From a virus: 64,000 bases of DNA. A program made the translations under genes and the position numbers. Numbering within the stretch: position 1 is the first letter of the stretch; every line of letters starts with the position of its first letter. The stretch lies in the IMG/VR virus record IMGVR_UViG_3300031853_000023, positions 7,254 to 71,253 of that record; one strand, given 5' to 3'. Below the pieces are notes generated by a model that worked only from the letters and a program-made list of their open reading frames with translations, did no database searches and had not been told where the DNA came from. Shown in pieces: positions 53,950 through 57,181 of the stretch.

Positions 53950-54474
53950 ATGAAAGCTGCTTATGTAAAATGCTTATATTGCGGCGAGCGTTTTAACCGC
54001 AATGACCTAAACATTCCTACAAAACAAGTATCTGCAAGAAGATATGCACATCTTTCTTGTTGGGAAAAACATCAATCAGAAATGTCAAAAGAAGAAAGAG
54101 ATATGGAAGCATTTTTTGAATATGTAAGAAATCTTTTTAAAGAAGATTATAATCATATTCTTACAAAAAAACTTGCAGAAAGATATGTAAAAGAAAATAA
54201 TTATAGTTATAGTGGAATGTTAAAAACTTTAAAATGGTATTATGAAAAAGAAGGACACGATATATCAAAAGGAAATGGAAGTATAGGCATTATTCCATAC
54301 ATATATAATCAAGCCTTAGAATATTATTATGCTCTATATAAAGCACAAAAGATAAATGCATCAAAGGATGTTTCTCAATATATAAAATCTCCTATAAGAG
54401 AAATCATGATTGAGTCTCCAAGAACTTTTGTGCCATCACCGCATTTATGGTTAGAGGAGGACGACGAAGAATGA
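53950..54474 (+). CDS. Zinc-finger protein (174 aa); possible helicase loader or primosome accessory by position
   Basis: CLYCGERF..HLSCW. Confidence 0.35.
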   Translation: MKAAYVKCLYCGERFNRNDLNIPTKQVSARRYAHLSCWEKHQSEMSKEERDMEAFFEYVRNLFKEDYNHILTKKLAERYVKENNYSYSGMLKTLKWYYEKEGHDISKGNGSIGIIPYIYNQALEYYYALYKAQKINASKDVSQYIKSPIREIMIESPRTFVPSPHLWLEEDDEE

Positions 54475-55736
54475 ACTCAAAATATTATGATGTTCAAAGC
54501 TGTATGCAAGTTATAGGAGATGTATTTATAAATCCAAATCTTTTAGATTTAGAAGAAAAATATAAATTTCACGAAGAAGATTTTCCGCAAGAATTTCATA
54601 AAATATTGTTTGGTTCTATCTATAATCTTCATAAACTTGGTGCAAAAGAAATCTCAGTAGAGGATATAGAACAATATCTTGAGCAAAGACCAAAAAAATA
54701 TTCTGTTTATAAACTTAATAAAGGTTCAGAATATCTTGAAAGTTTAAAAGAAATGTGTCAACTTGCGGCTTTTGATTACTACTATAATCGAATGAAAAAG
54801 ATGACACTTCTAAGAATGTATAATAAAAATGTTGGGATAGATTTATCTTGGCTATATGACCCTGATAATGTGTTAGATGTAAAAAAGAAAGAGGCTCAAG
54901 AAGCTTGGTTTGATAATACATCTATTATGGATATAGCTAATGTAATTAATGATAAAATTGATGATATAAAATCTAAATATGTTGACAATGCAGAAGAAGG
55001 GTTGATTCAAGCAGGAAATGGAGCAATGGCTCTTCTTGAAAGATTAAAAGAAAAACCTGAAATTGGTTATCCTTTATTTGGTAAACTTGTTAATGGTATT
55101 CATAGAGGAGCAAGATTAAAGAAATTTTATCTACGCTCCGCCGCAACAGGTGTAGGAAAAACTCGTTCAATGATTGCGGATGCTTGCTCTATTGCTTGTA
55201 ATCAAATTTATAATATAGAAAAAGGTGAATGGGAACCAAATGGCACTCGTGAACCAACTCAATTTATCACAACAGAACAAACAAAAGAAGAAATTCAACC
55301 TATGATGATTGCTTTCATATCTGGAGTTGACGAAGAACATATTATGAAAAGTGATTATGCAGAAGGGGAATGGGAACGAGTTGTCAAGGCCGCAGAAATT
55401 ATAGAAAGAAGTCCTCTCTATATAAAAATTCTTCCAGATTTTTCATTACAAGATATAGAAAACACAATTAAATTTGGTATTCGTCAAGAAGGTGTACGAT
55501 ATATCTTTATGGATTATATTCATTCAAGTATGAAAATCTTAAGTGAAATAAGTTCAAAAGCTGGAGTAAAAGGATTAAGAGAAGATAATATTCTATTTAT
55601 GATTAGTGTAAGATTAAAAGACTTATGTAATCAATATGGAGTATTTATAATGTCTGCAACTCAGCTTAATGCAGATTATATCTCTGCTCAACAATATGAC
55701 CAAAACTTATTGAGAGGGGCAAAAGCAATCGCTGAT
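54471..55736 (+). CDS. dnaB: Replicative DnaB-family helicase, exon 1 (3' end approximate)
   Basis: RBS GGAGGACGACGAAGA then ATG at 54471. Walker A SAATGVGKT and Walker B IFMDYIHS. The segment VFIMSATQLN..LRGAKAIAD corresponds to DnaB ..SQLNR..LRESGSIEQDAD. The frame then runs into non-DnaB sequence and ends at TAA 55857. Confidence 0.55.
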
Positions 55737-56902
55737 TGGACAAAGTTAATTAATGTTATATTGAATTTTTTTATTATAGATAGTGGAATAATTCCAGAAT
55801 CTAATTTAAAGGAGTTCAATTATGAAAAAAATTATTTTTACACAATAGCAAATAGATAATATTATTAATGATTATGTAATTAATAATATTTCAACAAGAT
55901 AGTTAGGAATTAAATATAATGTTTCTAAAACAGTAATAAGTAGGGTTTTAAAAGAAAATAACATTGAATTAAATCATACCAATAGAAAGTATTTTGGAGA
56001 CTACAATAAATTTTAGAAAATAGATTCTGCTGAAAAAGCATATTGGTTAGGTTTTTTGGCGGCAGATGGATGTAATTATTCAAGAGCAGAAAATGCTTCA
56101 ATAATAATTAATATACATCAAAAAGATATATAGCATTTATATAAATTTCAAAATTTTATGAATACAAACGCATAGGTAAAAACTTTTATACAAAATCAAG
56201 GGTTCTCAAATAATACTCCTATGTGTAAAATTGTATTAAATAGCAAAAAATTATCTAAAGATTTAAGTAATGTAGGCGTTGTTCCTAAAAAGAGTTTAAT
56301 TCTTTAGCCTCCAAAAATTGAGTCAAAATTTTACTTGCCTTTTATTTTAGGATATTTTGATGGAGATGGTTCCATTTTTGAAACAAAACAAAAAAGTTTC
56401 GGAATATCAATAGAAGGAACAAAAGAAATATTGGAATGGATTAATTCAATATTAAATATATCATCACATTTAGAAAAAAGAAAAAAAAATGATTCTAATA
56501 ATTATTTTATTCGATGTGGTGGAATCAATAAACCTTATTTAATTATGAAATAGCTTTATAATAGTGTAAATACACATTTAGATAGAAAATATAACATTTT
56601 TAAAACTTTGGAAACAGTCGTCCTTAATGAAAACATTAAGTGATTATGATCCCGTGAATTGCTGGAAAACCCTTAGAGCTTTCTAAACTACAACATAGAT
56701 ATGAAACAAAATCAGGTGTGAATGTTAAAAAATTAGAAAGATTGGGTAATCAGCAGCTAAGATTCGAATAGAATAAAGTTCAACGACTATCCGGTGGCGC
56801 GGAGTACATCTAAAAGATGGAAGTGCGGGATACCTAAGTATTTTAGAAAAAATATATGGTAAAGATATAGTCTACTCCTTTATGAAAGTAAAGGTAGCAA
56901 GG
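55737..56902 (+). mobile_element. Group I intron in dnaB carrying a LAGLIDADG homing endonuclease (boundaries within about 10 nt)
   Basis: P7 has GACUAUC (56778..) and UAGUC (56868..). P9 is CCTTTA/TAAAGG (56876..56893). The intron's last nucleotide is G56902. The 4-nt string GATT occurs at both junctions, so the exact exon end is ambiguous. The intein alternative is rejected in noticed_but_rejected. Confidence 0.5.
55822..56643 (+). CDS. Intron-encoded LAGLIDADG homing endonuclease with an N-terminal HTH; 7 in-frame TAG
   Basis: RBS AAGGAG then ATG at 55822. Motifs YWLGFLAADG and LGYFDGDGSI. TGA at 56641..56643. Confidence 0.55.
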
Positions 56903-57181
56903 AAAATTGATTGTGGTATGATTATGTTACAAGCAAATCAAGATGATTTTGATTCATTAAAAACAATAGTAAGTTCAATGGGAATTGAAATGCCAACAAT
57001 TAAAATATCTATTTATAAAAATCGTGGCGGCAGATATAAAGATATTCTTTTATGGTGTAAAGCTAATAGAGGAATTTGTAGAATTGAGCCTATATTCGCA
57101 ACCACATACAACTATGAATTAATTAATATTGAAGATTTAAAAATAACAGTAACCCCAAGAATTGAAGCGTCTGCTTTTTAA
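56903..57181 (+). CDS. dnaB: dnaB exon 2 (C-terminal region; 5' end approximate)
   Basis: KIDCGMIMLQANQDD aligns with DnaB EQDADLIMFIYRDE. ISIYKNRGGRY aligns with IIAKQRNGPTG. Confidence 0.5.
   Translation, partial: KIDCGMIMLQANQDDFDSLKTIVSSMGIEMPTIKISIYKNRGGRYKDILLWCKANRGICRIEPIFATTYNYELINIEDLKITVTPRIEASAF

Follow-up and report, generated by a model that had tools for sequence, protein, structure and literature searches.

Evidence for a mobile group I intron with a TAG-recoded endonuclease gene in the DnaB-type helicase gene of a phage

Introduction

How is the insert in the helicase gene of this phage removed, and how could the enzyme that it encodes be made? The stretch of DNA analysed here (referred to as the window) comprises 64,000 nucleotides (nt) of the virus record IMGVR_UViG_3300031853_000023 in IMG/VR and includes a dnaB gene that is interrupted by a segment with a LAGLIDADG endonuclease gene. 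Mobile phage group I introns with endonuclease genes are a well-known class of element, and dnaB is better known for inteins. An earlier note on this DNA, made from the sequence alone, had read the insert as a group I intron and not an intein, and the coordinates listed there were all confirmed. This reading is sustained by a match to the Rfam family RF00028, by covariation, by the boundaries seen in alleles without the insert and by a spliced product of 514 amino acids (aa): the insert is very probably a mobile group I (IA-like) intron of 1166 nt, interrupting motif H4 of a phage DnaB-type helicase gene. The same note had overlooked the seven in-frame TAG codons of the endonuclease gene and the genome-wide recoding of this codon.

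Boundaries of the intron and the spliced helicase

The dnaB open reading frame (ORF) starts with the ATG at 54471, enters the insert and terminates at a TAA (55857-55859), bearing out the earlier claim that the DnaB frame stops before the endonuclease. When the window is compared by blastn with intron-less contigs encoding P0002 (96–97% DNA identity), the alignment breaks at 55736|56903, with subject positions 8346 and 8347 adjacent; no base is lost between 55736 and 56903 in these intron-less alleles, which come from near-identical phages. Because the alleles align to 55736 and then resume at 56903 without loss, this comparison sets the intron boundaries exactly (Table 1). The earlier note had proposed a search for such alleles in relatives, and they define the insertion site: the intron-less dnaB sequence around the junction is GGGGCAAAAGCAATCGCTGATAAAATTGATTGTGGTATG. 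A GATT string is indeed duplicated at the two exon boundaries as had been described, but the junction is not ambiguous, as the alleles break at a single point. Joining the exons through GATT would be wrong because it would delete Lys-Ile-Asp, which all homologues retain.

The intron is in phase 0, between the codons for Asp422 and Lys423; exon 1 ends in U and the intron ends in G. Conceptual splicing produces a 514-aa DnaB with the junction ...AIAD|KIDCG.... In a protein search with this product, uninterrupted 514-aa homologues numbered in the dozens (P0001 with 97% and P0003 with 88% identity), and P0002 was identical (100%) over the C-terminal half. The uninterrupted homologues all read AIADKIDCG, ...AIADKIDCGMIML... 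and ...LLRGAKAIADKIDCGMIML... across the junction. Taken together, the intron-less alleles and the 514-aa homologues indicate, at the DNA and protein level, that precise excision restores the host reading frame. The spliced protein matches Pfam DnaB_C (1e-15) and the DnaB N-terminal domain (8.8e-5, 22.9 bits, slightly under the 23-bit cut-off). Its nearest cultured relatives are SPbeta YorI-type helicases (approximately 40% identity) and the helicases of 134-142-kilobase (kb) Enterococcus phages. A 99-aa ORF (56882-57181) at the far side of the insert continues DnaB in its C-terminal part.

The insertion (AIAD|KID, roughly SIEQ|DAD) lies within motif H4. It had been placed earlier at a classic DnaB intein site, which is correct with respect to the motif; by eye, the intron sits approximately 4 codons downstream of the classic RESG|SIEQD site. 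This mapping was made by eye, and an alignment to DnaB structures in the PDB ended before H4. The intron is polymorphic among close relatives: alleles that are 96–99% identical occur without an insert, with the intron, with an intein in the P-loop, or with both.

Table 1. Features of the dnaB locus (window coordinates).
Feature	Position	Strand	Description and evidence
dnaB exon 1	54471..55736	+	422 codons, 0 TAG; ends GCT GAT (Ala-Asp); ORF and blastn to intron-less L002-L005
Group I intron, subgroup IA-like	55737..56902	+	1166 nt; intron-less alleles, RF00028, covariation in 8 orthologues
P1 5' strand	55734..55747	+	Predicted: exon GAU and intron UG pair with guide; U55736 is the splice-site wobble; RNAalifold
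P1 extension, 5' side	55740-55747	+	ACAAAGUU; predicted to pair with 56604-11; 2 covarying pairs
Endonuclease leader in loop L1 (modelled)	55748..55821	+	Conserved U-run; small hairpin with compensatory changes; Shine-Dalgarno sequence AAAGGAG at 55808-55814
Homing endonuclease gene	55822..56643	+	273 codons and TGA (56641-43); helix-turn-helix-like N-terminus, two LAGLIDADG motifs
P1 3' strand and internal guide CAGUC (56615-56619)	56604..56619	+	Predicted; in the last endonuclease codons (L-E-T-V)
P2 hairpin	56620..56644	+	10 pairs, 5 compensatory, 100% paired; overlaps last 8 codons and TGA
Catalytic core	56649..56860	+	Rfam, RNAalifold and pair counts
P3	56649-54 with 56826-31	+	4/6 pairs compensatory
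P4-P6 domain	56660-56779	+	P5a 5/8, inner P6 helix 4/4 compensatory
P7 5' strand	56785-89	+	Invariant
P7.1	56790-56803	+	2/4 pairs compensatory
P7.2	56807-56819	+	3/3 pairs compensatory
P8	56832-56860	+	Core helix
J8/7 and P7 3' strand	from 56862, P7 = 56868-72	+	AAGAUAUAGUC; P7 invariant
P9	56877-83 with 56888-94	+	5/7 pairs compensatory
Terminal G (omega G)	56902	+	Kept in 8/8 orthologues
dnaB exon 2	56903..57181	+	92 codons and TAA, 0 TAG; begins AAA ATT GAT (Lys-Ile-Asp); blastn to intron-less alleles

Structure of the ribozyme

The Rfam check proposed in the earlier note was performed on a 1.45-kb stretch (55600-57050). RF00028 (Intron_gpI) matches 56591-56894 with a score of 75.2 bits (E=6.6e-19) against a gathering score of 50, and the match spans the model in full (1-253 of 253). 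When all 64 kb were scanned with Rfam, in either gathering or E-value mode, the group I intron was not detected. This miss is an artefact of the speed filter, because the 1.45-kb scan gives the same intron 75 bits, and whole-contig cmscan surveys of AT-rich phage contigs will undercount introns. In blastn comparisons, the core (56654-56794) is 71–83% similar in nucleotides to the region of the Twort nrdE intron and to sequences of Bacillus, Staphylococcus, Serratia and Yersinia phages that are intergenic or carry no annotation.

Eight orthologous introns (1165-1181 nt) share a common dnaB site and the same architecture in eight independent assemblies. All seven of the orthologous loci that were looked up are SPbeta-like replication modules (YorF, AAA_24, YorH, DnaB, DHH). 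For covariation analysis, the eight distinct introns were aligned with the endonuclease ORF removed. RNAalifold predicts P1, P2, P3, P4, P5, P5a, P5b, P6, P7.1, P7.2, P8 and P9 from this alignment, with 40 of 87 pairs compensatory. With the P7 pseudoknot added, the structure has 89 pairs and 97.7% of cells are paired, compared to 34–44% in slid controls; 41 of the 89 pairs show changes on both sides, compared to 1–10 in slid controls, and none of 500 shuffles reaches 41. P4 and P7 are invariant in the eight orthologues and thus uninformative for covariation. The RNA core that had been sketched downstream of the endonuclease (P7, P9 and a terminal G) was recovered at the positions listed in Table 1. 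The intron is assigned to subgroup IA on its predicted secondary structure, because the P7.1 and P7.2 helices are present.

P1 is predicted to be a long-range helix, in which G55734-A-U55736 and the intron bases U-G pair with C56615-A-G-U-C56619, approximately 880 nt downstream. The wobble U55736.G56617 is UG in all eight sequences, and RNAalifold predicts P1 independently. One pair of the P1 extension changes from A.G to G-C in L012 and to C-G in L016. The assignment of P1 is thus a structural one, based on conservation, RNAalifold and two covarying extension pairs. A guide next to the 5' splice site (a 4-base-pair GUUA at 55745 and 55755) was also considered: it is weak and unconserved (L010, for example, is without it), and CAGUC at 56615-19 was preferred.

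The endonuclease gene in the P1 loop

On the basis of the long-range P1 pairing, the endonuclease gene and its leader are modelled as occupying loop L1. As the earlier note stated, the gene has its own ribosome-binding site (the Shine-Dalgarno [SD] sequence in Table 1) and an ATG (55822) in another frame than dnaB exon 1. Both of the LAGLIDADG motifs that had been reported are present (LGFLAADG at 56047-56073 and ILGYFDGDG at 56344-56373), but the ORF that carries them is open only with TAG as a sense codon. The predicted protein matches Pfam LAGLIDADG_3 (PF14528) at 3.5e-9, with a weak N-terminal helix-turn-helix, and PHROG 4645 ('endonuclease') at 6e-48. It is 29–34% identical to 'DOD' endonucleases that introns of Staphylococcus and Bacillus phages encode. 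More than 1000 homologues were found, and those among the 120 matches listed are approximately 250-300 aa in length and 58–95% identical. In 69 homologues, D82, G83, D180, G181 and D182 are invariant, and the peptide LETVVL, at the end of the protein that is encoded by the guide and P2, is invariant or nearly so. The last 13 or so endonuclease codons also constitute the P1 3' strand and P2, an overlap of approximately 40 nt.

The endonuclease frame includes no TAA, one TGA (the terminator) and seven TAG codons (55846, 55900, 56014, 56131, 56173, 56305 and 56551, corresponding to codons 9, 27, 65, 104, 118, 162 and 244), while the other two frames have 14 and 26 TAA codons. The probability of finding no TAA or TGA in 273 codons is approximately 1e-7, and the probability that seven of seven stops are TAG is approximately 7e-6. 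Under the standard code, the longest endonuclease piece is 72 aa. Comparison with the orthologous genes and with the rest of the window (described below) indicates that the frame is intact with TAG as sense.

The leader has a U-run, conserved in all orthologues (55767-55814), that can pair with the endonuclease SD across a small covarying hairpin. This pairing is weak by minimum free energy folding and RNAalifold (-5 kcal/mol consensus, one covarying pair). The arrangement resembles the RBS-sequestering hairpin of I-TevI.

TAG recoding of the window

The whole window is recoded for TAG: with standard stops, 63% of it is covered by ORFs of 100 aa or more, against 92% if TAG is sense, and a single ORF of 3150 codons holds 69 TAG. 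This codon is common in the late-like genes on the left (117-30595, with the 3150-codon ORF among them), at 15.9 per 1000 codons. The endolysin gene (36925-38514) has four TAG, and together with the adjacent ORF has 8.8 per 1000. The replication genes have 1.0 per 1000 (6 in 5998 codons), and the dnaB exons have none in 514 codons. The endonuclease gene of the dnaB intron, with 25.6 per 1000, differs significantly from these replication genes (Fisher p=4e-7). Four of five endonuclease-like genes in the TAG-poor replication module are TAG-rich, including the GIY-YIG gene of an intron in gyrB (5 TAG in 229 codons).

In alignments, TAG mostly stands opposite E, Q or K. In orthologues it coincides with conserved Gln columns (e.g. 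NIHQKD), and a PDB alignment of the GH25 lysin has Q, Q, E and E at one conserved TAG column. A PDB match for reading TAG positions was also sought for the RuvC-like protein, and none was found. In a likelihood calculation corrected for the E/K/N-rich composition, Gln is favoured over Glu by 14.6 log units, on observations that are non-independent. On statistical grounds, TAG is most likely read as Gln, with Glu as the less probable reading. There are no tRNA genes in the window or at the related loci scanned. The TAG-recoded phage phAss-1 carries tRNA-Sup-CTA genes assigned to Gln (PMC10607447).

The full-length endonuclease can only be made once TAG is decoded. Because the gene has seven TAG and the dnaB exons have none, synthesis of the endonuclease probably waits for this decoding.

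Proposed mechanism and alternative explanations

We propose that self-splicing removes the intron from the early dnaB transcript. The pre-mRNA would fold such that the GAU at the end of exon 1 and the first two intron bases pair with the guide CAGUC approximately 880 nt downstream; free guanosine would attack after U55736, G56902 would dock, and the exons would then be ligated. By analogy with its family, the endonuclease would cut the intron-less dnaB of co-infecting relatives at or near ...GCAATCGCTGAT|AAAATTGATTGT..., and repair would then copy the intron into the cut allele. Full-length endonuclease would presumably be made late, via a suppressor tRNA encoded outside the window. Before TAG is decoded, ribosomes would halt at codon 9, short of the guide and P2, and early dnaB splicing would stay undisturbed by translation of the endonuclease.

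Stop codon recoding may thus serve as a timer that lets the endonuclease gene share sequence with its own ribozyme, a proposal that we put forward tentatively. A ribosome that reached the end of the gene would open P1 and so prevent dnaB from being spliced. The TAG codons would abort translation early, when decoding is standard and DnaB is needed, and would allow synthesis after the switch of TAG to sense; late synthesis would coincide with the payoff of homing into co-infecting genomes. In the T4 td intron, premature translation of I-TevI into core helices impairs splicing, according to the account of Gibb & Edgell 2010 given in PMC3073962. Were it confirmed, this timer would do through the genetic code what an RNA hairpin and a late promoter do in delaying I-TevI.

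Several observations weigh against the account as a whole. The five core P1 pairs show no covariation: one changes only from U-A to U-G, and the other four are invariant. Both strands of these pairs are constrained coding sequence. A P10 pairing with the start of exon 2 was sought and none was convincing. Neither the 64-kb window nor the 13 related loci that were scanned yielded a suppressor tRNA. For the meaning of TAG, both a raw BLOSUM sum and raw alignment counts favoured Glu. The orthologous endonuclease genes have 7, 7, 5, 0, 3, 7, 6 and 2 TAG codons, mostly at different positions, and this range of 0–7 at unlike sites may reflect relaxed selection rather than a selected timer. A partial GIY-YIG gene at the end of the window, borne by a probable intron in the PolIII-alpha gene, has no TAG in its first 109 codons. 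Lastly, splicing, cleavage and their timing are all matters that we infer from sequence.

It is plausible, if short of probable, that the TAG codons have no regulatory meaning, and that the gene has drifted to neutral TAG usage without any pressure concerning translation before the suppressor appears. The unconserved TAG sites of the orthologues and the TAG-free GIY-YIG gene both fit such drift, as does a density (25.6 per 1000) that is not clearly above that of the late-like genes (15.9 per 1000). Even so, the outcome would be unchanged, in that no full-length enzyme is made without TAG decoding. Neutral usage also sits poorly with the TAG-rich state of four of the five endonuclease-like genes in the replication module and with the same enrichment published for a TGA-recoded lineage (Borges et al.). 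Furthermore, because the 3' end of the gene encodes the guide and P2, ribosome traffic there should harm splicing, as for I-TevI.

Intron endonuclease genes commonly degenerate in the course of the homing cycle. The gene could accordingly be a decaying relic, a pseudogene with seven nonsense mutations beside a ribozyme that works alone; the standard code does cut it into pieces of at most 72 aa, and no suppressor tRNA is seen in the window. We consider this very unlikely: all seven interruptions are TAG, with no TAA, TGA or frameshift (see the probability above), and the genome overall reads TAG as sense. Orthologues at 58–95% identity retain both length and catalytic residues, and the TAG positions vary between lineages while the rest of the frame is open.

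It is more improbable still that dnaB is a fractured gene, with two pieces translated apart and assembling without RNA splicing around a free-standing endonuclease gene. Fractured genes with intervening endonuclease genes are known, as PMC2677866 indicates, and an ATG at 56882 opens the 99-aa ORF over exon 2. This ATG is inside the P9 hairpin and has no SD, however, and the break would interrupt motif H4. The endonuclease gene is embedded in a full, covarying ribozyme whose splice-site features are correct, and excising the insert at its exact boundaries gives back the uninterrupted alleles.

An intein, in which the LAGLIDADG domain would be removed by protein splicing and the frameshift and stops would be sequencing errors, is suggested by the insertion in H4, a classic intein location (sites a and c; PMC4760082), and by the LAGLIDADG inteins that close relatives carry in dnaB (though at the P-loop), but is refuted by sequence features: the insert does not share the exon frame, which runs into the TAA at 55857, the junction reads D|WTK... 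with no Cys, Ser or Ala nucleophile, no His-Asn precedes exon 2 (which starts with Lys, while the P-loop inserts of relatives end HN|T), Pfam gives no Hint or other intein splicing domain in the endonuclease protein, approximately 310 nt of the insert are a noncoding, covarying ribozyme core, and the same architecture recurs in the eight independent assemblies. The in-frame intein that the earlier note had named as the observation that would overturn its reading is therefore not what the locus contains.

Comparison with known systems

As a mobile group I intron, the dnaB insert resembles other phage IA introns with endonuclease genes, including T4 td/I-TevI, SPO1 DNA polymerase/I-HmuI, Twort nrdE and those encoding the 'mobile intron proteins' of Staphylococcus Kayvirus and Bacillus phage 0305phi8-36. 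It shares with them an IA-type core that includes P7.1 and P7.2, a location within a conserved motif of a DNA metabolism gene, a looped-out endonuclease gene with its own RBS and a 3' end overlapping structural helices, and a sporadic distribution among close relatives. A likeness to SPO1 is also seen in the blastn similarity of the core to unannotated stretches of SPO1-like Bacillus phage genomes. In contrast to these introns, it resides in dnaB, has its endonuclease gene in the P1 loop rather than in P6, P8 or P9, and encodes an enzyme that requires TAG read-through. No description of a group I intron in phage dnaB was found in the literature searched. Phage introns more often carry GIY-YIG or HNH enzymes (PMC3984707), whereas that of the dnaB intron is a LAGLIDADG enzyme.

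ORFs in P1 are known from elsewhere. In the Synechocystis tRNA-fMet intron (I-Ssp6803I) the ORF is in P1 and overlaps P1/P2 by 61 nt, and I-PpoI of the Physarum large subunit rRNA intron is also in P1 (PMC3073962 Table 1). Their endonucleases are of the PD-(D/E)XK and His-Cys box types and their hosts are RNA genes, unlike the phage protein gene described here. DnaB inteins (sites a and c in H4 and b in the P-loop; e.g. Ssp DnaB) have the host protein and motif H4 in common with this intron. The intron differs from them in that removal would take place at the RNA level, and in its position approximately 4 codons downstream of RESG|S, as aligned by eye.

The closest parallel for the recoding is found in Agate phages, in which a group I intron in an early gene carries an endonuclease gene that is preferentially recoded; Borges et al. 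(bioRxiv 10.1101/2021.08.26.457843) argue that its in-frame stops postpone the endonuclease to late infection. The dnaB intron is similar in that its endonuclease is recoded (seven TAG, versus none in dnaB). It differs in lineage and in codon: Agate phages read TGA as Trp, while the codon here is TAG, most likely read as Gln. Beyond the Agate case, the 3' end of the gene here is predicted to be the guide and P2, which would provide a concrete reason for harm from early translation.

phAss-1 ('Phassvirus') belongs to a group of TAG-recoded (code 15) gut phages in which TAG is sense mainly in virion and lysis genes (PMC10607447). Like this group, the phage studied here is from the gut, has a genome of some 110-150 kb and uses TAG as sense mainly in virion and lysis genes; it is distant from phAss-1 itself (approximately 32% amino acid identity in one structural protein). 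The report on phAss-1 (PMC10607447) does not mention introns, inteins or homing endonucleases. No near-identical genome was found in the phage collection.

Other insertions in the window and in related phages

A second probable group I intron (42052-43089) is located in a gyrB-like topoisomerase gene, the exons of which are at approximately 40332-42051 and 43090-43269. The gyrB-like frame breaks after ...NRLKG (with T42051 the last exon base) and resumes at 43090 (LGEMSPDE...), such that the insertion falls in a KG|LGEM motif. There is a U before the 5' splice site, and the last base of the intron is G43089. It has a GIY-YIG gene with a GTG start (42257-42946) and five in-frame TAG. The spliced gyrB-like protein gains a complete DNA_gyraseB_C domain. 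Rfam gives no match on this insert, as its core is split by the endonuclease gene.

A third probable group I intron (approximately 63205-64000) interrupts a PolIII-alpha ORF (PHP and DNA_pol3_alpha; 61883-63220). The PolIII-alpha frame stops at 63218, ending at position 92 of 260 of the Pfam domain. The insert has group I-like core motifs (AAGAAATAGTC at 63219 and GTAACGACTATCC at 63510), a weak 19-bit Rfam match and a GIY-YIG ORF that starts with the ATG at 63669 and runs off the window.

Two further ORFs between TAG-poor replication genes look like free-standing homing endonucleases. The first (48707-49597) encodes a GIY-YIG protein, hydrophobic in an N-terminal segment and charged over a long region, and has 12 TAG in 296 codons. 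The second (49979-50671) encodes a Cys-rich 230-aa protein with five TAG and no Pfam match.

The dnaB genes of L001-L005, from close relatives with 96–97% DNA identity to the window, have a LAGLIDADG intein of approximately 1.04-1.08 kb (at approximately 6690-7767 in L002-L005) in the Walker A P-loop (GVGK|...HN|T, site b), equivalent to window position 55159/55160. These P-loop inteins are of two types, one starting with Ala (P0002, P0005, P0046), which may be class 3, and one starting with Cys (P0074). The dnaB of L001 holds both intein and intron. A relative that is 98.6% identical to the window as far as 55717 has a different H4 insert (LLRG|AKAIAD), located 19 nt upstream (L018, from 3824, and L019). 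This insert has a group I-like start and a GIY-YIG ORF with TAG, and the contigs end before exon 2. In L012 (1899-2411) and L014 (1753-2412), which are more distant orthologous loci, exon 1 is called as only 347-349 aa and approximately 500-650 nt are uncalled before the intron, which suggests a further dnaB insertion upstream.

Upstream of dnaB, the AAA_24 ATPase gene of L001-L005 (approximately 3216-5356) is interrupted by a LAGLIDADG ORF of 293 aa, probably a further intron. The window copy of AAA_24 (52761-53825) is uninterrupted and has one TAG; standard-code calling shortens it to 53031-53825.

Conclusions

The general knowledge of group I introns is unchanged by this locus, and the recoding idea has already been published for another lineage. 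For annotation, standard-code gene callers give a truncated DnaB, a 99-aa orphan and endonuclease fragments in place of the correct product, a 514-aa helicase. At the level of the phage population, one helicase motif is contested by two different introns, with the P-loop of the same protein carrying inteins. The locus is a sequence-defined example of a mobile intron endonuclease that depends on the alternative code of its phage, and it could serve as a simple system in which to test whether recoding keeps splicing and endonuclease expression apart in time.

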